Below, in pieces: positions 37,966 to 59,818 of a DNA stretch of 64,000 bases. How positions within the stretch are numbered: the first letter of the stretch is position 1; every line of letters starts with the position of its first letter. Location: contig OZ245046.1 in NCBI GenBank assembly GCA_965224245.1, forward strand, positions 2,976,001 to 3,040,000, written 5' to 3'. Under the pieces are notes generated by a model. That model did no database searches. It was not told where the DNA came from and saw only the letters and a program-made list of their open reading frames with translations. The DNA comes from Candidatus Eiseniibacteriota bacterium (lineage in GTDB: Bacteria; Eisenbacteria; RBG-16-71-46; CAZAMP01). Made by a program: the position numbers and the translations under genes.

Positions 37966-37980
37966 TGGCACACGCATTGC
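37966..37980 (+). promoter_or_regulatory. sigma54 (-24/-12) promoter
   Basis: TGGCAC-ACGCA-TTGC, matching TGGCAC-N5-TTGC; predicted TSS about 37992. Confidence 0.75.
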
Positions 37981-37991
37981 GTTATGACAGG

Positions 37992-38406
37992 CGCGTGTGG
38001 ATGGGTGGTGTGGATGTGTTAGGCAAAGCCCCGGAATGGACGCGGATGGAGCGCCGGGCGCGAGTGGGAGAAAAGAGCACGGGTCGAGGGAGTTCCGCGC
38101 TCGATGTTCCAGTCGTTTCCATTCCGGTGGCGGCGCCTTCTCTGACGGATGTGCGGAAAGCTCTCGCACGGCGACTACGACACCCGACGAGTGGCTGCCC
38201 GGTTCTGTGAGGCTCCCCCGACTGCTGGATGGTGCCCAGTCCGACTCCGCCTGGTTGCCGGGATGTCACTCTCGCTCGACACGTCGATCTCGCGACCAGG
38301 CGTCCGCGAACGCGAGAGCTTTCCCTTTCGAGTTGAAGGTGGGGCCGACCTCTCGGGCTGATGTTTTGGGAGGGGCGGTCTTGGGGGCCGGCCTTCACCT
38401 TCTTTT
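37992..38406 (+). ncRNA. Candidate structured non-coding RNA (about 415 nt), family unknown
   Basis: Bounded by a sigma54 promoter and a hairpin with U-tract; perfect 10-bp (38031-40/38118-27) and 13-bp (38155-67/38312-24) inverted repeats with nested stems; no convincing ORF. Confidence 0.55.
38335..38406 (+). terminator. Hairpin with U-tract (plus-strand terminator)
   Basis: GAAGGTGGGGCCG...CGGCCTTCACCTTC followed by TTTT. Confidence 0.6.
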
Positions 38407-38486
38407 CCCCGAACTCACCACCGACGCCGTCCGACTCTCGCCGCCATCACCGCCACCACCGCGCGTCACGCCGACTCTCACGCACG

Positions 38487-48493: not shown

Positions 48494-50307
48494 CAGCTCC
48501 CCGAGTTGGGCGATCGGCTCGACGGGCCGTCGTCGAGCTCGATCCGGACGCGAAGCTCGTGGAGCTCCGCGGCGTCGACCGGCGCCGGCGATCCATCCAT
48601 CAGGGACGCCGCGCTCGTGGTCTTCGGGAACGCGACGGTGTCTCGAATGGACGTCGACCCGGATAGAATCATGATAATACGCTCGAGCCCCAGCGCAATA
48701 CCCCCGTGCGGCGGTGCGCCGTAGTCGAATGCTCTCAAGAGGAACCCGAAGCGGCGGTGGGCCTCCTCGATGTCCATGCCGATGAGCCCCAGGATCTTCT
48801 CCTGCAGCGTGCGCTCGTGGATCCGGATGCTACCCGAGCCCAGCTCGACACCATCCAGCACCAGATCGTAGAGCTGGGCGCGCACCGCGTCGGGCTCGGA
48901 GTCCAGCATCGCGATGTGGTCGGCCCTCGGCATCGTGAAGATGTGATGGCACGGCGCAAGCGCGCCGGTCACCGGATCCCGCTCCAGCAGCGGGAAATCG
49001 TTCACCCACAGGATCCGGTGATCGCCCGGCGCCGGTGGATGGAACGCGCGCCCGAGGTCCAGGCGCACCGCCCCCAGAGCCGTGCACGCGGTGGACCAGG
49101 CATCGGCCACGAACAGGAGCGTGTCCCCGTCGGAGGCCCCGCACGCGCCCAGGATCGCGCGCTGCTCGCTGAGCGAGAGGAACTTGGCGATGCCCGAGTC
49201 GAGCGTGTCGCCCGCGACCTTCGTCCGCGCGAGACCCTTGGCGCCGTAGCGCTTGGCGGTTGCCTCGAGCTCGTCGAGCGCCTTCCGGGACAGCGTGTGC
49301 TCGGCGGGCACGCGGAGCCCCTTGACGACTCCACCCGCCTCGATCGCGCCCGCGAACGCCCGGAACTCGGTGCCGCGAACCGCGTCGGTCACGTCCGCCA
49401 GGTGCAGCTCGAACCGGATGTCCGGCTTGTCGGATCCGTACGTGTTCATCGCATCGTGATAGCCGAGTCGCGGAAACGGCGTCTCGAGCTCGAGGCCGGC
49501 CGCCTCGGAGAAGATGGCCGCCATCAGTCCTTCGACCAGCGCGTAGACGTCCTCCTCCTGGACGAAGCTCATCTCGAGGTCGATCTGGCTGAACTCGGGC
49601 TGCCGGTCGGCCCGCAGGTCCTCGTCGCGCATGCACCGGGCGATCTGGTAGTAGCGATCGAAGCCCGCGACCATCAGGATCTGCTTGTAGAGCTGGGGCG
49701 ACTGCGGCAGCGCGTAGAACGATCCCGGCCTGATCCGGCTGGGCACGACGTAGTCCCGTGCCCCTTCCGGCGTCGGGCGGACGAGCATCGGCGTCTCGAT
49801 CTCGGCGAACGATTCGCGATTCAGGTAGCGTCGCGTGGCCTGGCAGACCTCGTGACGCCGCATGAGGATCGCCTGCAGCGCGGGCCGCCGGAGGTCGAGG
49901 TAGCGGTACTTGAGGCGCAGGTCCTCGGACGCGGAGTCGTGCTCGTCCAGTCCGAACGGCGGCACCTCGGAGGCGTTCAGGATCTCCAGCGCCTCGGCCC
50001 GCAGCTCGATCGCGCCGGTCGCCAGCTCGGCGTTCTGCATCTCGCCCGGCCGTGCCGCGACCACGCCCTCGACGGCCACCACGAACTCGCTCCGGAGCTT
50101 GGCGGCCGTCTGCATGACCGTCTCGGGCACCTCGGTCGCATCGAACGTGACCTGCGTCAACCCGTACCGGTCTCTGAGGTCCACGAACACGACGCCACCT
50201 TTGTCGCGATGACGATGCACCCAGCCGTTGAGGCGGACGCGCTGTCCCTCGTGCTCGCGGCGCAGCTCGCCGCACGTATGTGTTCGCGACCGAGTCCCCG
50301 TGCCCAT
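48493..50307 (-). CDS. aspS: Aspartate--tRNA ligase
   Basis: RTHTCGELR, RLKYRYLDLRR, PEGARDY, LPQSPQLYKQ, RDEDLRADRQPEF, GAPPHGG. Confidence 0.97.
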   Translation of the reverse strand: MGTGTRSRTHTCGELRREHEGQRVRLNGWVHRHRDKGGVVFVDLRDRYGLTQVTFDATEVPETVMQTAAKLRSEFVVAVEGVVAARPGEMQNAELATGAIELRAEALEILNASEVPPFGLDEHDSASEDLRLKYRYLDLRRPALQAILMRRHEVCQATRRYLNRESFAEIETPMLVRPTPEGARDYVVPSRIRPGSFYALPQSPQLYKQILMVAGFDRYYQIARCMRDEDLRADRQPEFSQIDLEMSFVQEEDVYALVEGLMAAIFSEAAGLELETPFPRLGYHDAMNTYGSDKPDIRFELHLADVTDAVRGTEFRAFAGAIEAGGVVKGLRVPAEHTLSRKALDELEATAKRYGAKGLARTKVAGDTLDSGIAKFLSLSEQRAILGACGASDGDTLLFVADAWSTACTALGAVRLDLGRAFHPPAPGDHRILWVNDFPLLERDPVTGALAPCHHIFTMPRADHIAMLDSEPDAVRAQLYDLVLDGVELGSGSIRIHERTLQEKILGLIGMDIEEAHRRFGFLLRAFDYGAPPHGGIALGLERIIMILSGSTSIRDTVAFPKTTSAASLMDGSPAPVDAAELHELRVRIELDDGPSSRSPNSGS

Positions 50308-50321
50308 CGAGTCCCTCTCCT

Positions 50322-50717
50322 TCAACCCGCGAAACGTCCCGGCCACCCGTGCGACCAGAACGACTTCCCGAAGACCACGCCCGAGACGACACCCACCGCA
50401 TCGGCGAGAAGGTCCCCGACCGATGCGTCCCGGCCCGGCACGTGGCTCTGTATCCATTCGTCGGTCAGGCCCACCGCGATCCCGATCGCGATCGCGATCG
50501 TCGCCGCCGTGATTCCCGTCCCCGTGCGCGGTCCGGATGCCCGCCACAGCAGAAGACCCAGGACGCCGTATGCGGTCGCATGAAGGACCTTGTCCAGCCC
50601 GTAGACGTCGGGGCCCGCCGCCGACGGCCGGGAGGAGGCGACCAGGAGGAGCGCCGCGTAGGCGATCGCCGGGCCTCGTCGGGAGAGCCACCCGGTGCGA
50701 CTCGCGCCCTCGGACAT
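50322..50717 (-). CDS. VanZ-family membrane protein
   Basis: DKVLHATAYGVL, DEWIQSHVPGR, DLLAD. Confidence 0.85.
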   Translation of the reverse strand: MSEGASRTGWLSRRGPAIAYAALLLVASSRPSAAGPDVYGLDKVLHATAYGVLGLLLWRASGPRTGTGITAATIAIAIGIAVGLTDEWIQSHVPGRDASVGDLLADAVGVVSGVVFGKSFWSHGWPGRFAG

Positions 50718-51190
50718 CACGCGCGTGACGCCTCTTCCTTTCGGGCGATCGCGGCAATCGCATCCTGGGGCGTCCGGACCGACAGCAGCCGGCTTTGCAA
50801 CTCGCCATCGTAGAGCAACTTCGAAACGCGGGCGAGCACCCGGACGAAGCCGCCCCGCTCTTCCGGACCCAGAATCATGAAGACCAGGTTGACCGGGCGG
50901 CCGTCCAGCGCCTCGAATTCGATCGGCGTCGAGGGTCGGACGAGCCCCACCGCGAGCCGCTTGACCGCCGAGCACTGGGCGTGCGGAATGGCCACGCCGC
51001 CGCCGATCCCGGTGGACATGACCCGCTCACGCTTCATCACCGCCTCCAGCGCGGCCGCGGCGTCGGTGGTCAGATCCGCCTCGCGAAAGAGCTCGATGGA
51101 GTCGTGGATGAGCGCTTCTTTCGTTCGAACGCTCGCCCCCAGGGACACGCAGCGCTCGTCGATGAGGTCCACGAGCTTGAGTGTGATCAC
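50717..51190 (-). CDS. PTS IIA-like (PtsN/fructose-type EIIA) protein
   Basis: RERVMSTGIGGGVAIPHA, FEALDGRPVNLVF. Confidence 0.88.
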   Translation of the reverse strand: MITLKLVDLIDERCVSLGASVRTKEALIHDSIELFREADLTTDAAAALEAVMKRERVMSTGIGGGVAIPHAQCSAVKRLAVGLVRPSTPIEFEALDGRPVNLVFMILGPEERGGFVRVLARVSKLLYDGELQSRLLSVRTPQDAIAAIARKEEASRA

Positions 51191-51266
51191 GTTGCAGTCC
51201 CCGTGCCCTCGTCGAGGCACTCGGCTAAGAGTCCATCCGGTGCGACGTTCGAAATCGAAGGCAGCG

Positions 51267-51295
51267 AATTTAGCACGCTCACGGGAGCGGTCCAA
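51267..51295 (-). promoter_or_regulatory. sigma70-type promoter of the EIIA-vanZ-aspS operon
   Basis: TTGGAC-N17-TAAATT with TG extension. Confidence 0.5.
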
Positions 51296-51329
51296 GCCGG
51301 ATTCCGGCCCCACATACGGCTTTTGACGG

Positions 51330-52061
51330 CTAATCGGGATCGAACACGACGCGGATCGACGTCCAGGCCGCATGTGGGCGACCGCCCCGACGGGCCGGCT
51401 CGAAGCGCGCGCGCGACGCCACGGCCAGTGCCGGGGCCCGGAACTCGTCCGGGACCGCGACCGCATCGTCGGGAATCTCGGCGTCGGAGACCCGGCCGTC
51501 GGCATCGACCCTCACGCGAACCTCGACCACGACCACGCCCCGCGACCGCGAGGCCTCGGGGTAGTGGGCCGCCGGAAGGGCGACGACGACCGGGCGCGTG
51601 GCGTCGCCCTGGCCGCCCGATTCGGTGACGGACGACAGGGCCGGGCGCGCCGCGGACGATCGTGTTCCGTCGAGCCGCTCCCACGCGGCGCGGGCGGCCG
51701 GCCCTTCGGACCGCTCGGACGGACCGGTCACCTCCGGAGGGGTCTGGAGCGGGGTGTCCGCCGGCTCGGGGCGGGGCTCGGGCGGAGGCTCGGCCACGTC
51801 CGGGAGATCCGGAGGGTGTGCGAGATCATCCGCCCCGGTGGGTGCGCCATCGGCGGACGGGATGGATTCGCGGGCGATCGCGACGACGTGAATGGGATCG
51901 TGCGAGGCGAACGACACCGATGCAGCGCCGATGGCGCCCCGATCGGTGTCGCCGAGCGAGCGGACGAGGTCGGCGGGAACGAGCCAGAGCACGGCACCGT
52001 GGATCACGCAGGCCGCCGCCGTCGATGCGATCCGGTGTCGACGAGGCGGTCGCCGGCGCAT
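51330..52061 (-). CDS. TonB-like protein
   Basis: N-terminal TM helix with His (VIHGAVLW), Pro-rich linker, TonB C-terminal domain (YPEA..VRVRVDADGRV..RFEPA). Confidence 0.7.
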   Translation of the reverse strand: MRRRPPRRHRIASTAAACVIHGAVLWLVPADLVRSLGDTDRGAIGAASVSFASHDPIHVVAIARESIPSADGAPTGADDLAHPPDLPDVAEPPPEPRPEPADTPLQTPPEVTGPSERSEGPAARAAWERLDGTRSSAARPALSSVTESGGQGDATRPVVVALPAAHYPEASRSRGVVVVEVRVRVDADGRVSDAEIPDDAVAVPDEFRAPALAVASRARFEPARRGGRPHAAWTSIRVVFDPD

Positions 52062-52068
52062 GATCGGG

Positions 52069-55000
52069 TCAGGCGCGGCGGTCCAACCCGTAGCGCGCGA
52101 TCTTGTTCTTGAGTCCCTTGCGACTGAGACCCAGCGCCACCGCGGCCCGGCTCTTGTTCCAGGCGTTGTCCTCGAGCGCACGCTGGACGATCTGGCGCTC
52201 GATGCCGTCGAGCTGCTCGCGGAGCGAGACTCCAGTGCGAGCCGGCGGCTCGGGGGCGAGCGTCACCTCGCTTTCCAGAAGACGCGACGGCAGCAGGTCG
52301 ATTCCGATGGTCTCGTTCTCGTCGGCGAGCGTCACCGCCCGACGCATGACCTTCTCCAGCTCGCGCACGTTTCCGGGCCAGTCGTACTCGACGAGCTTCT
52401 GCATGGCGATGCGGGAGATGCCCTTGATTGTCTTGTCCAGCTTCTGGGCGAAGACGTCCGAGAAGAACTCGGCCAGGAGCGGAATGTCGTCCTTGCGACG
52501 ACGCAGCGACGGGACGTGGATCGTGATGTCGTTCAGGCGGAAGTAGAGGTCCTTCAGGAACCGTCCCTCGGCCACCTCACGCCGGAGATCGGCGGACGTC
52601 GCGCAGACGATCCGGATGTCCAGGGGACGGTAGGCGTGGCCGCCCACGGCCCGGACCTCGCCCGAGTCGAGCAGGTGCAGGAAGCGCCGCTGGACCTCGA
52701 GCGTGGTCTTGTCGATCTCGTCGATGAACACCGTGCCGCCCTCGGCCTCCTCCAGGATGCCCTTGCGATCGTGTGTGGCGCCGGTGAACGCGCCCTTCAC
52801 GTGACCGAAGAGCTCGCTCTCGAGCACCGATTCCGACAGAGCCGCGCAGTCCACGGTCGTCAGCGCGGCGTCCGCGCGCGAGCTGCAGAGATGAAGCGCG
52901 CGCGCGATCAGCTTCTTGCCGGTCCCGGTCTCGCCCTGGAGCAGCACGCTGAGGTCGCTGTCGGCCACGCGGCTGACGAGGCCGAGGATCGAGCGCATCT
53001 CGGCGTTCTCGGTGACGATGTCCGCCAGCGCGATGGACCGGTCGATGCGATCGAGCTCCCGCAGGCCGCGACGGTTTCGAATGCTCGCTTCCTCCAGGAA
53101 CCCCGCCAGCTGCCGGGCCAGCGTCATGCAGTAGCTGACCTCGGCCTGATGGAACTCCGGATTGCCGGCGTCCAGCACGCGGTCGACGTAGAGCACGCTC
53201 CACACGCCGGCGCTCTCGCGCAGGGGTACCGCGATCGCGGACTCGACCTCACGCCCGCTGGCCAGGGGGCCCAGGCTGCGTCGCTTGTTCCCACTGGCCA
53301 TGCCCAGGAACACCGCCGGACGGTCGCTGGCCGGCCAGCCGGCCGTGAACGCCGACGGGCGGGCGAACGACCTGCCGATGGAGAGCGCCGGGATGCCGTG
53401 GGCGCCGATCACTCTCACGTCCGTGCTCGCCACGTCGAGCATGCTCGCACCGGCACACGGGATCGTGGCGGTGAGCACGCCGAGGAACTCGGAGATCTTG
53501 TCGTCGAAGGACCGATCGGACTTCAGCACGCGCTCCATCTTCTGGTGCGCGTCGAGGCTGTCCTTCGTCGACACGGCGTTCTCGACGAACGTGCACTCCA
53601 GACGCTGCTGCACCTCGCTCAGCTGATCGTCGAGCGCTCGGGCCCCGTCGAGCGTGCCCAGGAGCTCACGTGCCCGTCCGAGACGCTCGGCCGCGCGATC
53701 GACGGCGCGGTGCCGGATGTCCTCGTCGGCGATCGCCAGGAGGGTGCGGAACTCGGCCCGCGGGTGACGCAGCGCGCGGTACCCGTCGAGCGCGTCCTGG
53801 AGGTGCTGGACGCCGCTGATGCGGGTGCGGTCGTCGGTGGACTCGAGCTCCAGGCGTCCCCGGAACTCGATGACGCGGGTGAGCCAGAACGACTCGCCGG
53901 CGCGGCGCAGGATCTCGACCGCCTGGCGAGCGGCCTCATCGGCCCGCGCGTGATCTCCGGCTCCGGCGTGCAGCTCACCGATCGTCAGGAGGAGGCGCGC
54001 TTCCAGAAGCCGGTTGCTGGTGGTCCTGGCGGACTCGAGCCCGCGGGACGCCACCGTGAACGCCTCGCCCTCGCGTCCCTCCAGCGCCCTGACCCGTGCG
54101 ATGACGCGGTCCAGCTCGCCCTCGAGACGGTTGCGCCCCAGGCGCGCCGAGATGTCGGCCGCCTTGGCCGCGAAACCGGCTGCGTCCGCCGCGTTGCCGG
54201 CGCCCAGCGCCGACTCGGTGAGACCGAGATACGCGGACAGCATGCCGTAGAGGTGCTGCTGCAGGGCGCTCAGCTCGAGCGCGCTCCAGAACAGCTCGCG
54301 CGCGCGATCGTATTCCTCGCGCATCAGATGAACGTCGGCCTTGCCCGCCAGCGCGAGCGCGGAGCTCGCCGCGTCGCCGATCTCGCGGGACTTGCGGTGC
54401 GATTGCTCGAAGTCGTCGAGGGCCTCGTCGAGCTGACCCAGCATGGTGTGCAGGATGCCCTGGGTCTGGAGCACGGCCGGCAGCCCGGAGTAGTCCCCCT
54501 CGATCGACATGAGGTTCTGGGAGACCTGGCAACACTCGAGCGCGCGGCTCCAGTTGCACGCGCGGCGGTGAAGCATGCCGATGTTTCGGTAGATGCGCGC
54601 GACGTTGGACAGGCTCCCGAGATCCTTGAAGACGGTCAGGGCGTCCTGGTACATGCGCATGGCCGTGTCGACGTCGTCGCCGCGGTGGGCGATGCTGCCA
54701 CGCAGCTGGAGTGCCTGGCCCAGCTCGAGGCACGGCTCGGTGTCGACGAGGAGGTGCATGGCCGCGTCGACGTTCCGGGTCGCCTCGCCCAGCTGGCCGC
54801 GGCGGGTGCGAACCCGCGCGAGCTGAAGCTCGATCCGCACGCGCTCGATCAGCGGCGTGGCCTCGGTCATCGCGTGAGCGGCCTCGAGCGCCGTCGACTG
54901 CGCGTCGACGGCCTCTCCCAGACGAAGCTGGCAGTCGCTGATGCGACGCAGCACGGACGCGCGCAGCCGGGCGCCGTCACCGTTCAACGTCGCGAGTGCT

Positions 55001-55167
55001 TCGCGATAGTGCTGGACGGCGCCGGCGAAGTCGGCGCTCTCTGCGGAGAGGTCGCCGAGCTCGATCAGCCGCGCGCCGGTCGGTCGCGATCGGTCGGTGT
55101 CGTTGGGATCGCCGGCGGACGGCGCCTGGGCGGTCCGGTCGACGTTTCGAGCCTCATGCGTAGCCAT
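52069..55167 (-). CDS. sigma54-dependent enhancer-binding protein with N-terminal TPR array and GAF-like domain
   Basis: About 500 aa of TPR-like helices; GETGTGK, ESELFGHVKGAFTGA, FIDEI, WPGNVREL; Fis-type HTH (NKSRAAVALGLSR). Confidence 0.92.
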   Translation of the reverse strand: MATHEARNVDRTAQAPSAGDPNDTDRSRPTGARLIELGDLSAESADFAGAVQHYREALATLNGDGARLRASVLRRISDCQLRLGEAVDAQSTALEAAHAMTEATPLIERVRIELQLARVRTRRGQLGEATRNVDAAMHLLVDTEPCLELGQALQLRGSIAHRGDDVDTAMRMYQDALTVFKDLGSLSNVARIYRNIGMLHRRACNWSRALECCQVSQNLMSIEGDYSGLPAVLQTQGILHTMLGQLDEALDDFEQSHRKSREIGDAASSALALAGKADVHLMREEYDRARELFWSALELSALQQHLYGMLSAYLGLTESALGAGNAADAAGFAAKAADISARLGRNRLEGELDRVIARVRALEGREGEAFTVASRGLESARTTSNRLLEARLLLTIGELHAGAGDHARADEAARQAVEILRRAGESFWLTRVIEFRGRLELESTDDRTRISGVQHLQDALDGYRALRHPRAEFRTLLAIADEDIRHRAVDRAAERLGRARELLGTLDGARALDDQLSEVQQRLECTFVENAVSTKDSLDAHQKMERVLKSDRSFDDKISEFLGVLTATIPCAGASMLDVASTDVRVIGAHGIPALSIGRSFARPSAFTAGWPASDRPAVFLGMASGNKRRSLGPLASGREVESAIAVPLRESAGVWSVLYVDRVLDAGNPEFHQAEVSYCMTLARQLAGFLEEASIRNRRGLRELDRIDRSIALADIVTENAEMRSILGLVSRVADSDLSVLLQGETGTGKKLIARALHLCSSRADAALTTVDCAALSESVLESELFGHVKGAFTGATHDRKGILEEAEGGTVFIDEIDKTTLEVQRRFLHLLDSGEVRAVGGHAYRPLDIRIVCATSADLRREVAEGRFLKDLYFRLNDITIHVPSLRRRKDDIPLLAEFFSDVFAQKLDKTIKGISRIAMQKLVEYDWPGNVRELEKVMRRAVTLADENETIGIDLLPSRLLESEVTLAPEPPARTGVSLREQLDGIERQIVQRALEDNAWNKSRAAVALGLSRKGLKNKIARYGLDRRA

Positions 55168-55213
55168 TTCGACAAGTCCCCCCGGGACGCACGAGAATCG
55201 GACGACTAGCCTT

Positions 55214-55516
55214 CTACGGGGCCGTCCAACGCAAGACGCTGAGCGTGATCAATGCGACGAGTCTCGAGAGCGACAGCGACCGCTGCCGGACCGGAGTGGA
55301 CTCGTCCTCGAGCACCGTGAACTGACCGACACGATCGAACGGCTCGTCGGGCTCTCCCTGGCAGTTGAGCTCCGGCTCGGGATCGCCGGGCCCCATGTAC
55401 GTCCCGCCGCCGTCGTTCGGCTTCACCTGCTCCCACTCGGCGTGCGCGCTGGGCACGGCAAGCAATGTCGCTCCGAGGAGCGCCATGACGAGCCCGACCT
55501 TACACACCTTCCACAT
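55214..55516 (-). CDS. Small secreted protein/peptide precursor (100 aa)
   Basis: RBS GGAGGT; MWKVCKVGLVMALLGATLLAVPSAHA signal peptide (AHA cleavage site); acidic GDPEPE/GEPDEP core; hydrophobic C-terminal tail. Confidence 0.75.
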   Translation of the reverse strand: MWKVCKVGLVMALLGATLLAVPSAHAEWEQVKPNDGGGTYMGPGDPEPELNCQGEPDEPFDRVGQFTVLEDESTPVRQRSLSLSRLVALITLSVLRWTAP

Positions 55517-55614
55517 CGCACCTACCTCCAGGATCGTCGCCATTCACAGCGGGCCGCCAGGTGTGGCGGGCTGGGCTGCGGCGACACGTGAGCATCACAC
55601 GTCCCCATTGCATA

Positions 55615-55629
55615 ACAAGTTCCGGGCCA
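55615..55629 (-). promoter_or_regulatory. Candidate sigma54 promoter of the peptide-bEBP-tonB operon
   Basis: TGGCCC-GGAAC-TTGT: correct -24/-12 spacing, but GT instead of GC at -12. Confidence 0.55.
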
Positions 55630-55724
55630 ACGGCGGCCGTTCCGGACGCGATCGTGGAAGTGGGAGCGAACGTGACGTTTGGCGATCTGGCTCCCACGTC
55701 GTCACCGGGACCGCGACGGGCAAC

Positions 55725-55816
55725 CGGGGTGGTTACTTCCTAACCACTCTCGCAGTGTAGCCGAGAACATCATTCATTCCAAAGGTTTTGCAGATGTATC
55801 CACGGTAACCACCCCG
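55725..55816. promoter_or_regulatory. Inverted repeats, candidate upstream activator sites
   Basis: CGGGGTGGTTAC (55725-36) / GTAACCACCCCG (55805-16) perfect 12-bp IR, plus GTGGTTA-N5-TAACCAC (55729-47). Confidence 0.45.
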
Positions 55817-55922
55817 AATCTCGCGAGGTGAGTCCAAGGTACCCACCGGAACACGCGCGCCACCGGCCCCGGCTGTGTGATAAACTCCCATCCAGTCATC
55901 ACTTCCGGCAACAGCCCGCGAT

Positions 55923-57284
55923 ATGGATCGACCCAGCATGAGTCGTCAGCGCATCGATTATCGCCGCCTGCTTGCCGAGGTGATCCCGCGCGGTCCCCTG
56001 CCGGACGACGTTCGGGTGGCCGTGGATACGGCGCTGGCGTCCCCGACCGAGCCGGCGTGCGAGCGTGTCGCCCGGCTGGCCATCGACTCCCTGGTCGCGG
56101 TGGGGCGCCTCGAACGTCTCGACGACCCCGACCCGCAGCGCGCGGTCGAGCGCTACGTCGATACGGCGACCGGTGACACGATCACCGTCCAGTGGACGGT
56201 GGCCACCCGGGCCGAGCGGATCGTGCGCGTGGCGATCCCCCCCGACGCCGGACGCCACGCGCTCGATCTGGAATCGGTCCGCGAGATACTCGACATCGAT
56301 CAGCACCTGTTCCAGGCCGACGGCCGGTCCCCGAACCCGTACGGCGAGATCGTCCGGGCCGCGCTGGCGCGGGTCACTCAGCTCACGGGAGCGGACTTCG
56401 TCACGTTCGTGCCCGCAGAGCGCCTCTCACACCCGGGGACGCCGGACTTCGGCCTCCCCGAGACCCCGCCGGAACGCGTTGCGCCGCTCAGGCGACTGGC
56501 CCCCCCGGCCGAACGGTCGGCGGTATACGTCCCGGACGTCGCGTACGACGATGATCTCGTCGCGATCGCGCCGGCGGCGGACTTCGCCTCGGTCGCGTTC
56601 GCCGGGGTCGGACGCGATGCGACCTCCATCGATGGGTACCTGGAGGCGTGGAGCCGCTCGCGCGACTTCCTGGATGCCGACGGGCTGACGGCGTTCGCGC
56701 TGTTCGCCGATCGCCTCTCGGCCACGCTGCGCAAGGCCTCGGTGCTCGAGCTGCTCGTGTACCACGACGCGCTGACCGGGCTCCACAATCGCAGCTACTT
56801 CAACCAGCAGATCGCCAAGGAGGTCGCACGCGCGCGCCGTGCGGGCCAGAGCTTCGCGCTCGCGATCGCCGACATCGACGACTTCAAGGGGATCAACACC
56901 CGGTACGGGTACCACGGCGGGAACGACGTTCTCGAGCAGGTGGGGCGCCTCGTCCGCGCGTCGGTGCGGCCGTTCGACGTGGCCGCACGCTGGGGCGGCG
57001 AGGAGTTCGCCCTGGTCCTGACCGCCCCCATCGACGAGCAGGGCGCGATCGCGGTCAGCAACCGGATCCGCGAGTCGGTCAAGGCCACGTCGTTCGCCGT
57101 GACCGACCTGGAGCAGACTACCCACGTCGTGCCGATCACGATCTCGGTGGGCGTCTCGGTGTTTCCATCCGACGCGAGCGCGCCCGAGGAGCTCTGGGCC
57201 ACGGCCAACGCGGCGCTCGGACAGGCCAAGCGCCGGGGCAAGAACCGGGTCGTCGCCGCCTCCTCGCGGGGTGAGGTCGCCTGA
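55923..57284 (+). CDS. Diguanylate cyclase (GAF-like + GGDEF)
   Basis: DALTGLHNR, DIDDFKGIN, RPFD I-site, RWGGEEF, AKRRGKNRV. Confidence 0.92.
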   Translation: MDRPSMSRQRIDYRRLLAEVIPRGPLPDDVRVAVDTALASPTEPACERVARLAIDSLVAVGRLERLDDPDPQRAVERYVDTATGDTITVQWTVATRAERIVRVAIPPDAGRHALDLESVREILDIDQHLFQADGRSPNPYGEIVRAALARVTQLTGADFVTFVPAERLSHPGTPDFGLPETPPERVAPLRRLAPPAERSAVYVPDVAYDDDLVAIAPAADFASVAFAGVGRDATSIDGYLEAWSRSRDFLDADGLTAFALFADRLSATLRKASVLELLVYHDALTGLHNRSYFNQQIAKEVARARRAGQSFALAIADIDDFKGINTRYGYHGGNDVLEQVGRLVRASVRPFDVAARWGGEEFALVLTAPIDEQGAIAVSNRIRESVKATSFAVTDLEQTTHVVPITISVGVSVFPSDASAPEELWATANAALGQAKRRGKNRVVAASSRGEVA

Positions 57285-57313
57285 GGGCGGCCGGGGCGAG
57301 CGGGCCGGACAGA

Positions 57314-57350
57314 CGAGAGCCCCTCTCGCCATCGGCGCGAGGGGCCCTCG
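57314..57350. terminator. Hairpin between convergent DGC and HU genes
   Basis: cgag-a-gcccctc-t-cgcc-atc-ggcg-c-gaggggc-c-ctcg. Confidence 0.5.
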
Positions 57351-57369
57351 AGAACCGACTCGACCGGCT

Positions 57370-57636
57370 CTACAGGCTCTCTTTGAACGCCTTGCCCGGA
57401 CGGAAGCGGACGGTCTTCGAGGCCTTGATCTTGATCGCCTCGCCCGTCTGGGGATTACGACCGGTGCGGGCCTTGCGCTTGCTGACCTGCCACGAGCCGA
57501 AGCCCACGATGTTGACGCCACCCTTCTTCGTGTGACGGCGGATGAGGTCGAACGTGGTGTCGATGGCCGTCGACGCATCCTTCTTGGTCATCTGGCACTT
57601 GTCGGCAACGGCGTCGATGAGCTCTGCCTTGTTCAC
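57370..57636 (-). CDS. hup: DNA-binding protein HU
   Basis: MNKAELIDAVA, GFGSW, ARTGRNPQTGE, FRPGK. Confidence 0.95.
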   Translation of the reverse strand: MNKAELIDAVADKCQMTKKDASTAIDTTFDLIRRHTKKGGVNIVGFGSWQVSKRKARTGRNPQTGEAIKIKASKTVRFRPGKAFKESL

Positions 57637-57690
57637 GGAAACCTCCTGGTGAGTGTGTCACTCGGACACGTGAGAGAACTGCCGCGTTGG

Positions 57691-57719
57691 GAGTTACCAC
57701 TGCCACGAGAGGTCGTCAA
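57691..57719 (-). promoter_or_regulatory. sigma70-type promoter of hup
   Basis: TTGACG-N17-TAACTC with TG extension. Confidence 0.55.
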
Positions 57720-57796
57720 GGCGAAAAGGGCGGAGAGACCGGAAAACAGGGCGTTTCACGGAACGTGATCGGCGAAACCCGTCCCGGTGGCGGCTG

Positions 57797-59818
57797 TCAG
57801 CGGATGGTGATTCCGAGAATCCGGTCGCCGACGTCCAGGCCGTCCACCACGGCCATCCCGCCCTCGACGCGGGCGAACACGGGATATCGGCCGTCCAGCG
57901 CGGAGACCGACCGGAGCGTGATCAGGAAAGCCCCGCCCGGCCCGGCGGCGGTGGGATCCAGCGCGAGCACGCTGCCCCGGGCCGTCCGCGTGACGCTCGT
58001 GTCGTCGACGTGCGCGGGAGCGAGCGGCTCGACGCCTCCCCCGCCGATCACGACGGAATCGAGGAAGGCGCCCACGAACGGGGTACCGTCCAGATCACCC
58101 GCCGCGACCCGGGACGCGAAGCCGGCGACCGTGTGGGGCGCGTCGGCCCCCAGCAGGCGAAGCTGAACGTCGCCGTGCGTCGTGTGGATGCTGGCGACCC
58201 GCGGGAGTTGATCGGTGGCCGGCATCGTGCGCGTACGGCGTAGCCGCACGCCGTCGAGCGACACGCGATCGGGCACCTCGCACCCCAGTGGGCCGCGTGT
58301 CCCCGCGAGGTCTCGAGCATGCCACAGCCGCGCGAACGCGAGCCGGCGCACGGCGAGGCTCTCGTGATCCAGAAAACGCGGCAGCTCGCACAGCCCATCC
58401 GCCCGGTCGGCGAGCGCGCGGACGAGCGCCGCGGCGACCCGGGGCTCCAGCCGATCTCGATAGAGGGTCGCGAGAACCTCGCTCGCCGGGCCGGATCCCT
58501 GTGCGCGTCCCAACGCCTCGATCGTGGCCACGACGACACGACCGTCCGCATCCCGAAGACGATCGATCAGCGCCTCCACGAGCGCCGGGTCGCCGTCGGG
58601 GCCCTCGAACCGGAGTCGGGTCACGCAGAGGGGGAGCGCAGCGGGATCGTCGGCCGCGAGCCGCTCCACCAGATCGGCGCTCGGCGCCTCGTCCACGAGG
58701 ACCTCCGCACGAACGATCGCCGCGGAGTCCGCGCGCATCTCGCCCAGACGGGCCCGAGCGCCGGCCGACCCCGCACGCCGGAGCGCGGGGACGACCGCGG
58801 CCCGCACGACCCCCCGGGGATCGTGGGAGAGGCTCAGGAGATCGTCCAGCGGGACGACGACGCCGTCGTGCGCCGCGACGGTGGCGAGCGCCAGGCGGAC
58901 GGCGGGGGACGGGGAGTGGACGTACGGCAGCAGCGAGCCCGACGCGGCGGCGCCTGCCGCGCGCCCGGCCGCGAGGATCGCGGGAACCAGCACCGAGGGC
59001 TCCCACTCGGCCCCTCCGATACGATCGGTGAGCGCGCGCAACGCAGCGGGGTCCGGCGACGCGCCCAGCGCGCGGCACGCCTCCGCACGCACCCGGGGAT
59101 CGGGGTCGGAGAGGGCCGGGACCAGATCCGACGAGGACCCTCCGTGGGCACCGAGCGTCTCGACGGCGTGGGCCCGGACGATCGGATCGGGATCCCCGAG
59201 CCGCGCCAGCACGGCTTCACGCGACGCGTCGTCCCAGTGTCGGACGAGTCCGAGGACGGCCTCGGCGCGAACCCCCGCGTCTCGGTCCGAGAGCGCGGCC
59301 GTCAGGTGGGCGACGATCCGACTCTCGAGGCCGTCTCCGGCGGGCCCCACGTCCGGGGAGGCCGCGAGCGCGCGGAGCACGGCGGCACGCGCCGCCCCGT
59401 AGATCACAGCGGCCCCGGGTGAGCCGTCACCGAACGGGCGATCCAGGCGATCGGCCAGCACGAGCCCGATCTGGCGCCGCCGACGCGGCTCGCGCGTCCC
59501 GATGCGCTCGAGCGCGTAGGCAGCCGCCGCGGCGACCTCGGGATCTCGGTCGCCCACGAGCGCGATCATGGCATCCAGGGCGTCCTCGCCCCCCATGCGG
59601 GCGGCGGCACGGCACGCGCGCACGCGAACACCACCGGACGGATGGTCGACGAACGCGGCGAGGCCGGCATCGTGTCCCCATCCCGATCGCTCGATCCTGG
59701 CGATTCGCTCGAGGTCCGACGGCGCCTGGCAGGCACAGACCAGGGCGACGACGAGCCCGAGACCTGCTCGCGTCGCGCGGGCGAGCACCGGGGGAGCATC
59801 GCGGCACGTGCGGTCCAT
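57797..59818 (-). CDS. HEAT-repeat lipoprotein with C-terminal cyclophilin-like domain
   Basis: LVCAC lipobox; repeated D(P/R)DP.VRA HEAT units; TTHGDVQLRL..APHTV..LDGRYPVFARVEGGM cyclophilin fold; start at ATG 59818 inferred. Confidence 0.75.
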   Translation of the reverse strand: MDRTCRDAPPVLARATRAGLGLVVALVCACQAPSDLERIARIERSGWGHDAGLAAFVDHPSGGVRVRACRAAARMGGEDALDAMIALVGDRDPEVAAAAAYALERIGTREPRRRRQIGLVLADRLDRPFGDGSPGAAVIYGAARAAVLRALAASPDVGPAGDGLESRIVAHLTAALSDRDAGVRAEAVLGLVRHWDDASREAVLARLGDPDPIVRAHAVETLGAHGGSSSDLVPALSDPDPRVRAEACRALGASPDPAALRALTDRIGGAEWEPSVLVPAILAAGRAAGAAASGSLLPYVHSPSPAVRLALATVAAHDGVVVPLDDLLSLSHDPRGVVRAAVVPALRRAGSAGARARLGEMRADSAAIVRAEVLVDEAPSADLVERLAADDPAALPLCVTRLRFEGPDGDPALVEALIDRLRDADGRVVVATIEALGRAQGSGPASEVLATLYRDRLEPRVAAALVRALADRADGLCELPRFLDHESLAVRRLAFARLWHARDLAGTRGPLGCEVPDRVSLDGVRLRRTRTMPATDQLPRVASIHTTHGDVQLRLLGADAPHTVAGFASRVAAGDLDGTPFVGAFLDSVVIGGGGVEPLAPAHVDDTSVTRTARGSVLALDPTAAGPGGAFLITLRSVSALDGRYPVFARVEGGMAVVDGLDVGDRILGITIR

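Follow-up and report, generated by a model that had tools for sequence, protein, structure and literature searches.

A small exported-type protein encoded with a TPR-containing sigma-54 activator across the Eisenbacteria, and its possible role as the activator's cognate input

What could be the function of a gene for a small exported-type protein that lies directly in front of the gene for a transcription activator? The question is raised by a locus in a 64,000-nucleotide (nt) stretch of contig OZ245046.1 (Candidatus Eiseniibacteriota bacterium, assembly GCA_965224245.1), the whole of which will be called the window hereafter. On the minus strand at 50.7-55.6 kb, a small open reading frame (ORF) is followed by the gene of a sigma-54 activator (bacterial enhancer-binding protein, bEBP) with a long tetratricopeptide repeat (TPR) array, a TonB_C-domain gene, a PTS EIIA-2 gene and a VanZ-like gene. 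An earlier note on this DNA had singled out the first three genes as co-oriented and closely spaced, which the ORF listing bears out, and had proposed that a processed peptide is re-imported with the help of the TonB-like protein and sensed by the activator, which would then activate its own operon. Our analysis, in which all coordinates are positions in the window and the activator cassette is on the minus strand, confirmed the observation in part and gave partial support to the interpretation. That is, sequence comparison indicates that the conserved unit consists of two genes, encoding the small exported-type protein and the activator, and not of three. The pair appears to be undescribed and looks like a signal with its sensor. 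The two genes and their parts are:

55214..55516, minus strand: small-protein gene, 100 amino acids (aa) from the ATG at 55516 (ORF 55214..55543; TAG stop at 55214-55216)
55439..55516, minus strand: predicted signal peptide (residues 1-26) read from the translation, its core hydrophobic and its cleavage-type site Ala-His-Ala
55346..55357, minus strand: G-E-P-D motif, residues 54-57, within a Gly/Pro/Asp-rich, predicted unstructured stretch
55217..55282, minus strand: C-terminal 22 residues of the small protein, hydrophobic and basic, with the nearly invariant W97
52069..55167, minus strand: sigma-54 activator (bEBP) gene, 1032 aa
53653-55077, minus strand: TPR superhelix, residues 31-505 (AlphaFold2, Pfam TPR_12)
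53068-53508, minus strand: GAF-like domain, residues 554-700 (fold model, sub-threshold sequence match)
52516-53019, minus strand: AAA+ domain (Sigma54_activat), residues 717-884 (PF00158, E 7.5e-59)
52090-52203, minus strand: HTH_8 domain (Fis-type), residues 989-1026 (PF02954, E 9.5e-10)

The evidence for the pair comes from its conservation. Full-length relatives of the activator were found in 39 of the 41 related genomes, usually two per genome, and its TPR and GAF part was matched in 191 of the 206 genomes of the phylum (a tally that includes G083) and in 115 of the 121 high-quality ones, one family having only 5 of 15. We examined 90 loci, two of which are cut at the activator gene by contig ends; the 88 loci with upstream DNA were reduced to 73 distinct ones by removing duplicates, and cover 14 of the 18 families of the phylum. 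By similarity to the window protein or to its paralog in the same genome, the 73 loci were divided into 30 window-type and 43 paralog-type ones, with one truncated locus (L115, family f11) that ties being counted as window-type. The earlier note had suggested looking for an upstream secreted ORF beside homologs of the activator, and such an ORF was present directly 5′ of the activator gene and on the same strand in all 88 loci (73/73 distinct); three of these ORFs were identified by eye, where the detector had picked another ORF. The gap between the two genes is mostly 6-110 nt. The in-genome paralog of the activator (G000:C1:2409080-2412145) is also preceded by a small exported-type ORF, and the small proteins that go with the activator paralogs differ from one paralog to the next. 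For comparison, the detector was run in the same way on 1238 control starts of long coding-like ORFs in the window's own genome, where it found a signal-peptide-like upstream ORF at 117 (9.5%), versus 73/73 at activators; the acidic motif and the tryptophan described below occurred together at a single control start, versus 49 of the 73 activator loci. Related genomes are not independent, and therefore no P value is attached to these figures. Since not one of the 88 loci lacks the upstream ORF, the pairing is real, phylum-wide and well over the control rate, and it is not due to chance.

What is kept in the small protein, though, is an architecture rather than a sequence. Across the 73 distinct loci the small ORFs encode 87-135 aa, and in their alignment (A4) column identity averages 14%, M1, D57 and W97 being the only nearly invariant positions. 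The arrangement is constant: the signal peptide is followed by a stretch rich in Gly, Pro, Ser and Asp, by a motif of the G[DE]PD type and by a C-terminal segment of about 20 residues that is predicted to be helical. An AXA-like cleavage site is present in 71 of the 73 relatives; in the window protein, residues 1-27 form the only stretch with a 19-residue Kyte-Doolittle (KD) mean above 1.4, and AlphaFold2 predicts helices at residues 7-19 and 83-98 with an unstructured middle part. The acidic motif reads G[DE][PNG]D in 52 and [DE]P[DN] in 59 of the 73 distinct loci. Among the last 22 residues, a Trp is found in 67/73 and a net charge of at least +2 in 55/73; the character of this C-terminal segment is kept between families but its sequence is not. 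On these alignments the small protein looks like a vehicle for a few short linear motifs. The low similarity is also apparent from searches: tblastn with the window's small protein recovered none of the other family members, and 18 small proteins scanned against Pfam and NCBIfam gave no family match apart from single hits at E >0.1. In the Protein Atlas the best matches of the small protein are unnamed clusters at 0.88, which is a lead only, and a single-protein scan of contigs returned one relevant locus, L021, in an unclassified metagenome-assembled genome. A hidden Markov model of the small proteins matched only the window copy among the ORFs of its own genome, so that no free-standing copies were detected, but the model is too insensitive to exclude such copies because it missed the known paralog.

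Three other ideas about the C-terminal segment were tried and abandoned. A membrane anchor was ruled out by a transmembrane (TM)-like character in only 2/73 proteins, and an amphipathic helix by a helical moment not above that of shuffled sequences (mean z 0.17). Membership in the PEP-CTERM or a comparable class of sorting signals was also rejected: none of the 18 proteins scanned had an NCBIfam match of this kind, the motif lies about 30-50 residues before the end, and TM-like segments are as rare as just stated.

Could the small ORF be nothing more than an open frame of the kind that is abundant in GC-rich DNA? The window copy has a strong ribosome site, GGAGG, 8 nt 5′ of the ATG at 55516, and its GC contents at the three codon positions (.66/.47/.87, versus.72/.47/.90 in the activator gene) are coding-like; the longer reading from 55543 is probably not used. 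Translation, ribosome site and coding-type GC thus bear out the 100-aa protein with a putative signal peptide that the note had described. Moreover, the frame, the length range and the architecture have been kept in 73/73 loci despite the low column identity, and the control rate of such frames is 9.5%. A chance frame is, for these reasons, extremely unlikely.

The second gene of the pair also turned out as first described, namely as a 1032-aa bEBP with a long TPR array and an intact GAFTGA motif (residues 792-797), which is supported by the Pfam domains and by 12 helix pairs. The Pfam matches further include AAA_lid_14, the Walker A motif reads GETGTGK at 745, and the TPR region matches only generic TPR models. 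This domain content indicates that the activator is a member of the enhancer-binding protein family; all of its NCBIfam scores are under the equivalog cut-offs, the best alignment being that to NorR, which runs from residue 539 to the end and scores 305.9 versus a cut-off of 476. No TM-like segment was detected in the activator (best 19-residue KD mean 1.52). A word-based homolog search with residues 1-700 returned 8 TPR-activator relatives, which carry automatic names only.

Residues 1-704 were modelled with AlphaFold2 on the basis of 72 relatives, with a predicted local distance difference test (pLDDT) score of 90.4. In the model, 12 TPR-like helix pairs span residues 31-505, and a long helix (510-549) connects them to an alpha/beta domain (554-700). 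The GAF domain assigned to this last region in the note is compatible with the modelled fold, but the sequence match is sub-threshold: none was obtained at E<=0.01 with the whole protein, and the domain alone matched PF01590 at E 0.0072, with 17.3 versus 22.4 bits. Nearly invariant repeat signatures of the NLG type are found at N195-L196-G197 and N235-L236-G237. Foldseek gave the TPR domain of LGN/Pins as the top matches of the model (E ~1e-9). When structures were re-ranked for the TPR array (VIA), the best neighbour was APPBP2 with a degron peptide (Z 33.8); pheromone-type receptors were also among the neighbours (Rap, Z up to 27.5; NprR, 24.8, or 24.4 for NprR-NprX; AimR, 22.5), as were APC/C subunits, LGN with partner peptides (26.7) and MalT (26.6). 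According to the model, then, the TPR array is a superhelix of the peptide-binding type.

This brings us to the relation between the two proteins. The reading that we prefer, though tentatively, is that the activator senses the small protein through its TPR part, as its cognate ligand or partner. A fast-evolving Sec-exported protein of about 100 aa would be co-transcribed with, and encoded directly upstream of, a soluble cytoplasmic activator, whose TPR groove would read two conserved elements of the small protein, acidic G[DE]PD and the basic C-terminal segment with its Trp, either on a fragment re-entering the cell or on the precursor before export. Reading by the TPR array would in turn set the capacity of the AAA+ domain to open sigma-54 promoters. 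The output would differ by lineage, that is, the cassette's own promoter in three families and, in the paralog lineage, a sigma-54-driven RNA and an envelope-protein operon just downstream. What was observed comprises the genes with their domains and motifs, the pairing in every locus and the promoter positions; export, binding, the direction of information flow and each of the sensing steps are inferred.

Several arguments favour this role as cognate input. The sensor part occurs throughout the phylum and its pairing is universal, each paralog has its own partner, and only two short linear elements of the small protein are kept; furthermore, the best structural neighbours of the TPR array are superhelices solved with linear peptides. 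Within the 1.5-kb flanks, which limit all our neighbour counts, no gene besides the pair that would be able to read the motifs is conserved across both lineages, and the activator is without a membrane segment of its own.

Other points weigh against it. One is a compartment problem, in that the small protein has a predicted cleavable export signal whereas the sensor is cytoplasmic. The mature part, of about 75-95 aa, is far longer than the known RRNPP pheromones. The neighbourhood of the pair contains no conserved importer, since the TonB-like gene is present in 5 of the 30 window-type loci only, and no processing enzyme or protease is linked to the pair among its conserved neighbours. RRNPP proteins appear in the VIA re-ranking yet not among the top 50 Foldseek matches, although absence from such a list is not in itself evidence, and because LGN, MalT and the APC/C score as well as Rap, NprR and AimR do, the likeness to the RRNPP fold is generic. 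The canonical sigma-54 box found before the small ORF in three families (15/73 loci) also fits a small protein that is a mere target of the activator, and the excess of TAG stops together with the invariable upstream position hints at a role in cis. A complex prediction with the TPR and GAF part (residues 20-700) and the mature small protein (27-100), with alignments as input, scored 0.00 and gives no verdict either way.

As the activator is soluble and the small protein predicted to be exported, four routes can be envisaged: re-entry of a fragment, binding before export, action in cis during translation, and none at all. In the cis case, the small ORF would be an exported leader peptide of the SecM/VemP/CutF kind, the C-terminus of which, in the ribosome, and perhaps also the acidic motif, outside the membrane, would slow termination and so set the activator level, leaving the mature protein without a job. 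An ORF that is always upstream, close and on the same strand is what such a leader calls for, as is an export signal combined with a conserved segment at the extreme C-terminus. TAG is the stop codon of 44/73 small ORFs, compared with 31% (90/293) of the long ORFs of the same loci and 327/1125 ORFs in 2 Mb of the genome, counts in which kinship is ignored, and Arg is the final residue in 31/73. Moreover, in the paralog-type loci of family f9 a conserved hairpin lies between the two genes. SecM, VemP and CutF provide precedents. CutF is exported, combines a binding motif for the periplasm with a stalling-like motif at its C-terminus, and acts as a sensor in control of the gene that follows (PMC9973294); arrest peptides whose C-termini are diverse are widespread (PMC10987492).

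This explanation meets with a number of difficulties, however. A PP or RAPP-like motif in the last 15 residues was found in 0/73 small proteins, and a Cys/His motif in 4/73. The RNA at the junction of the two genes in the window folds no better than shuffled sequences (z 0.62), and the fraction of the activator's ribosome site that is paired with the 3′ end of the small ORF is 0.0 in the window and exceeds 0.4 in 11 of 65 loci. The C-terminal sequence varies between families, unlike motifs that fit the conserved ribosome tunnel, and the known monitoring substrates act on Sec/YidC or metal genes and not on transcription factors. A cis-acting leader is, on this evidence, fairly unlikely. Membership in the CutF-like proteins proper, for which the filter is PP in the last 15 residues (PMC9973294), was ruled out by the lack of a Pro-rich stalling motif (0/73).

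The promoters bear on a further possibility, that of an exported product which is co-expressed with the activator and not sensed by it directly. Boxes of the -24/-12 type were scored by a simple weighted score with a maximum of 21. Canonical boxes (TGGCAY-N5-xTGC) precede the small ORF by 65-130 nt in 8/8 loci of f7, 5/5 of f11 and 2/2 of f14, at a score level expected 0.036 times per 250 nt. The search for conserved -24/-12 boxes in relatives, also proposed in the earlier note, was thus positive in 15 of the 73 loci, but in these three families only: there was no canonical box before the small ORF in the 15 window-type loci of f1, f5, f6, f13 and f15, nor in the 43 paralog-type loci. In 9/10 of the f13 and f15 loci (L012, L014, L154-L160, by eye), a sigma-70-type string, TTGACA-N17-TAnnnT, is located 70-100 nt before the small ORF, in the position that a sigma-54 box occupies in f7, f11 and f14. 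The promoter class of the cassette appears, from these strings, to have been swapped during evolution.

In the paralog-type cassette, sigma-54 boxes are found on the other side of the activator gene. A canonical box together with a GGAGG-purine run-CCTCC hairpin lies directly 3′ of the activator in 41 of the 42 loci with downstream DNA (the module comprises loci L170, L018-L020, L120-L153 and L163-L169), where both elements start a conserved ORF-free transcript, and a second sigma-54 box precedes an Fn3-lipoprotein operon in 32/32 loci with the gene in view. The paralog of the window's own genome, which lies outside the window (G000:C1:2405500-2414000, L170), has both boxes and a variant hairpin; the window's own locus is without such a box or RNA downstream. 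An Rfam search with six paralog-type loci gave one sub-threshold match only, taken as chance. Since the sigma-54 targets of this lineage lie downstream (41/42) and 0/43 boxes precede the small ORF, the small protein of the paralog lineage would be made together with its regulator without being its obvious target, a point in favour of its role as input.

The transcript of the RNA module is about 150 nt long in f8, with a T-run terminator, and longer in f9. A separate observation concerns the f9 paralog-type loci L130-L149, in which a conserved hairpin is located between the small ORF and the activator gene; its stems vary and still pair, as judged by eye, and its loop, CGAACC, is complementary to GGTTCG at the ribosome-binding region of the activator. 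This hairpin may be a translational control element.

A co-expressed product could be, for instance, a membrane-active peptide whose pro-region is acidic and whose end is cationic and rich in Trp, or a factor protecting the envelope in the way of ZraP or CpxP, while the activator would sense otherwise, through its GAF-like domain, TPR partners or EIIA. The signal peptide, the acidic Gly/Pro/Asp-rich stretch and the basic aromatic C-terminus give the small protein the charge layout of a pro-peptide. In f7, f11 and f14 the small ORF is probably a sigma-54 target, because the canonical boxes directly precede it, and EIIA is a conserved neighbour in f1, f6, f13 and f15. In most lineages, though, the small ORF is no evident sigma-54 target, since the canonical box is absent from the 43 paralog-type loci and from the other five window-type families. 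Furthermore, a strict one-to-one pairing throughout the phylum, with no free-standing copies detected (by the insensitive model search mentioned above), exceeds what an ordinary target would need, and the C-terminus is no more amphipathic than shuffled sequences. We regard a co-expressed product without direct sensing as somewhat unlikely, and return to the small protein as cognate input as the preferred reading.

How far, then, does the full circuit of the note apply at this locus? Its promoter elements and intergenic features include:

55624..55609, minus strand: candidate box CGGAAC-N5-ATGCA, score 17.0, keeping GG and GC
55606..55591, minus strand: candidate box GGGGAC-N5-ATGCT, score 17.5, keeping GG and GC
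55657..55700, no strand assigned: 11-nt inverted repeat with a 22-nt spacer, between the GGDEF gene and the small ORF and upstream of the candidate boxes

The string that the note had named, TGGCCC-N5-TTGT, is indeed present at 55629..55615 on the minus strand, about 112 nt before the ATG, but it has GT in place of the -12 GC and scores 16.5 of 21, a chance level expected 0.72 times per 300 nt. The two candidate boxes listed above, which keep GG and GC, are of a kind of which about 0.11 matches are expected per 250 nt. All three strings, overlapping or adjacent at 55591..55629, are weak and score below the canonical boxes of f7, f11 and f14. The pattern TTGG..C-N5-TTGT is common to the window and a relative of the same family (L002), at a similar distance; because it is shared, some element may be conserved at the two loci, not a canonical sigma-54 promoter. 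The inverted repeat is a possible activator site, known from this single instance and by eye not conserved in the closest relative.

The third gene of the proposed circuit, and the genes around the pair, are:

51330..52061, minus strand: TonB_C-domain gene (ORF 51330..52181; Pfam TonB_C, E 1.7e-8)
50717..51190, minus strand: PTS EIIA-2 (PtsN-like) gene, with a GTG start (Pfam PTS_EIIA_2, E 5.2e-29)
55923..57284, plus strand: divergent GGDEF diguanylate cyclase gene (Pfam, E 3.1e-40)

The TonB-like protein probably starts at the ATG at 52061, 7 nt past the activator stop. It matches PF03544 with 35.2 bits versus a cut-off of 24.6, and has an N-terminal TM-like segment (maximal 19-residue KD mean 1.82, residues 55-73 of the long ORF) and a Pro-rich linker. 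The domain, anchor and linker of a TonB protein are all in place, but the gene does not belong to the conserved unit: it is found in 5/30 window-type loci, confined to f1 and f11, and in 0/43 paralog-type ones, and its product is only the 8th best of the 10 TonB_C matches in the genome. On sequence grounds we consider it a lineage-specific neighbour.

In its complete form the circuit would comprise a processed peptide, TonB-energised re-import, binding by the TPR array and self-activation through sigma-54. The three genes adjoin one another and probably share a transcript, 7 nt separating the activator gene from the TonB-like gene; the latter also lies 3′ of the activator in the same-family relative and in 3/5 f11 loci, and the promoter-proximal string is shared with that relative. 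Against this, the remaining window-type families and all paralog-type loci gave no TonB-like gene, the TonB_C paralog is a weak one, and no outer-membrane receptor or ExbBD was seen in the locus (none among the ORFs of 49000..58500, no genome-wide search having been made). The box is without a GC at -12 and scores no better than chance, and f13 and f15 carry, as judged by eye, a sigma-70-type promoter instead; self-activation through sigma-54 at this locus is hence unsupported. The complete circuit seems improbable here; it is a narrower version of the reading of the small protein as cognate input, and is already contained in our estimate for that reading.

With regard to the remaining neighbours, the gene at 50717..51190 falls below the NCBIfam equivalog cut-offs for PtsN (TIGR01419, 71.6 versus 138.7; NF008145, 63.8 versus 221) and is best taken, from its domain match, as encoding an EIIA-2 domain protein. 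An EIIA gene lies 3′ of the activator in 12 of the 30 window-type loci (those in f1, f6, f13 and f15), which makes it a more widely kept neighbour than the TonB-like gene, and a divergent GGDEF homolog lies upstream in 15 of the 30. The note had given the EIIA gene a sigma-70 promoter of its own; a consensus scan of the minus strand of 50300..56100 found 0 such sites, so that a separate promoter is unsupported, and a scan of the same strand and region found no intrinsic terminator. The string GGGCAC-N5-CTGCA (51193-51208, minus strand) scores 19/21 and ends 3 nt before the GTG start of EIIA, too near the start codon for a usual promoter role. Rfam gave no match in 50000-57500 at E<=1, and none across the whole window at gathering scores. 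The gene for sigma-54 itself, rpoN, lies elsewhere in the genome (G000:C1:2094703-2096073; TIGR02395, 454.5 bits, above the cut-off), which also encodes some 36 further activator paralogs. At a distance from the cassette, in the region 37966-38415 on the plus strand, the box TGGCACACGCATTGCG at 37966 scores 19.5/21, and no convincing ORF is present in the roughly 420 nt after it; a putative stem and a T-rich end are found near 38340-38410, with a fold no better than that of shuffled sequences (z -0.16) and no Rfam match.

Sigma-54 activators are usually switched by phosphorylation, by small ligands or by partner proteins made in the cytoplasm, and, to our knowledge, no mode of input has been described in which every activator is matched one-to-one with a small exported protein. 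In the openly accessible literature searched, the supplements of PMC9973294 and PMC10987492 aside, no paper was found that connects TPR sigma-54 activators with secreted peptides or with sensing of the RRNPP type. If the small protein were the ligand, the pair would represent peptide-type signalling outside the Bacillota and open a way to study how members of an uncultured phylum communicate. If it acted in cis, exported nascent-chain sensors, so far linked to secretion and metal genes, would be extended to the control of a master transcription factor. In either case the pair is compact, and is testable in a heterologous host through the orthologs with a canonical sigma-54 promoter.

Among known systems, NorR, NifA and FhlA share with the activator the order of a GAF-like domain, an AAA+ domain with GAFTGA, and HTH_8; unlike them, the activator has a 500-residue TPR array in front and the gene of an exported small-protein partner. 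In the fold of the array and in the NLG-type repeat signature, it resembles LGN/Pins with peptides of Inscuteable, NuMA or Frmpd, in line with the top Foldseek matches. The TPRs of LGN/Pins wrap long extended acidic peptides; Inscuteable may use a Glu-Pro-Glu motif, a parallel to G[DE]PD on which a literature search found no paper. These are eukaryotic polarity proteins, though, and the likeness is one of fold class only.

With SecM-secA, VemP-secDF2 and CutF-cutO, the pair has in common that the regulated gene is directly preceded, on its own strand, by a small ORF that encodes an export signal and a conserved element at the extreme C-terminus. In addition, the conserved motif in the exported part recalls the metal site of CutF (PMC9973294). 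The differences are that the downstream gene is here a transcription activator, that there is no PP or RAPP motif (0/73), and that no stem masking the ribosome site is predicted at the window locus.

The RRNPP quorum-sensing systems of the Bacillota (Rap-Phr, NprR-NprX, PlcR-PapR and AimR-AimP) likewise combine a cytoplasmic TPR receptor with the adjoining gene of a small secreted protein, with one cognate pair per paralog, and the fold of the activator resembles those of Rap, NprR and AimR (Z 22-27.5 over about 350 residues), if no more closely than those of unrelated TPR proteins. Its effector part, however, consists of a C-terminal AAA+ domain and a Fis-type HTH, whereas RRNPP proteins have an N-terminal HTH or a phosphatase/3-helix bundle, and it has 12 repeats and a GAF-like domain. 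The small gene lies upstream and not downstream, and encodes about 100 aa, which is longer than typical pro-peptides. The pair also occurs in a different, probably diderm phylum, and no link to Opp was seen beside it. Because both the effector domain and its position in the protein differ, the activator is placed outside the RRNPP family; it may still work like a member of it.

Finally, the paralogous cassette, though not that of the window, is similar to LuxO-Qrr, CbrB-CrcZ and GlrR-GlmY in having a sigma-54 box and an ORF-free transcript after the activator. Carried to its end, the comparison would lead to a phylum of probably diderm bacteria with two orthogonal peptide-type channels, each running from a small exported ligand to a TPR-sigma-54 activator. 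The RRNPP logic would there have been invented independently, and one channel would end in a sigma-54-dependent small RNA, as in LuxO-Qrr, a picture that we offer as a rather doubtful extension of the preferred reading.

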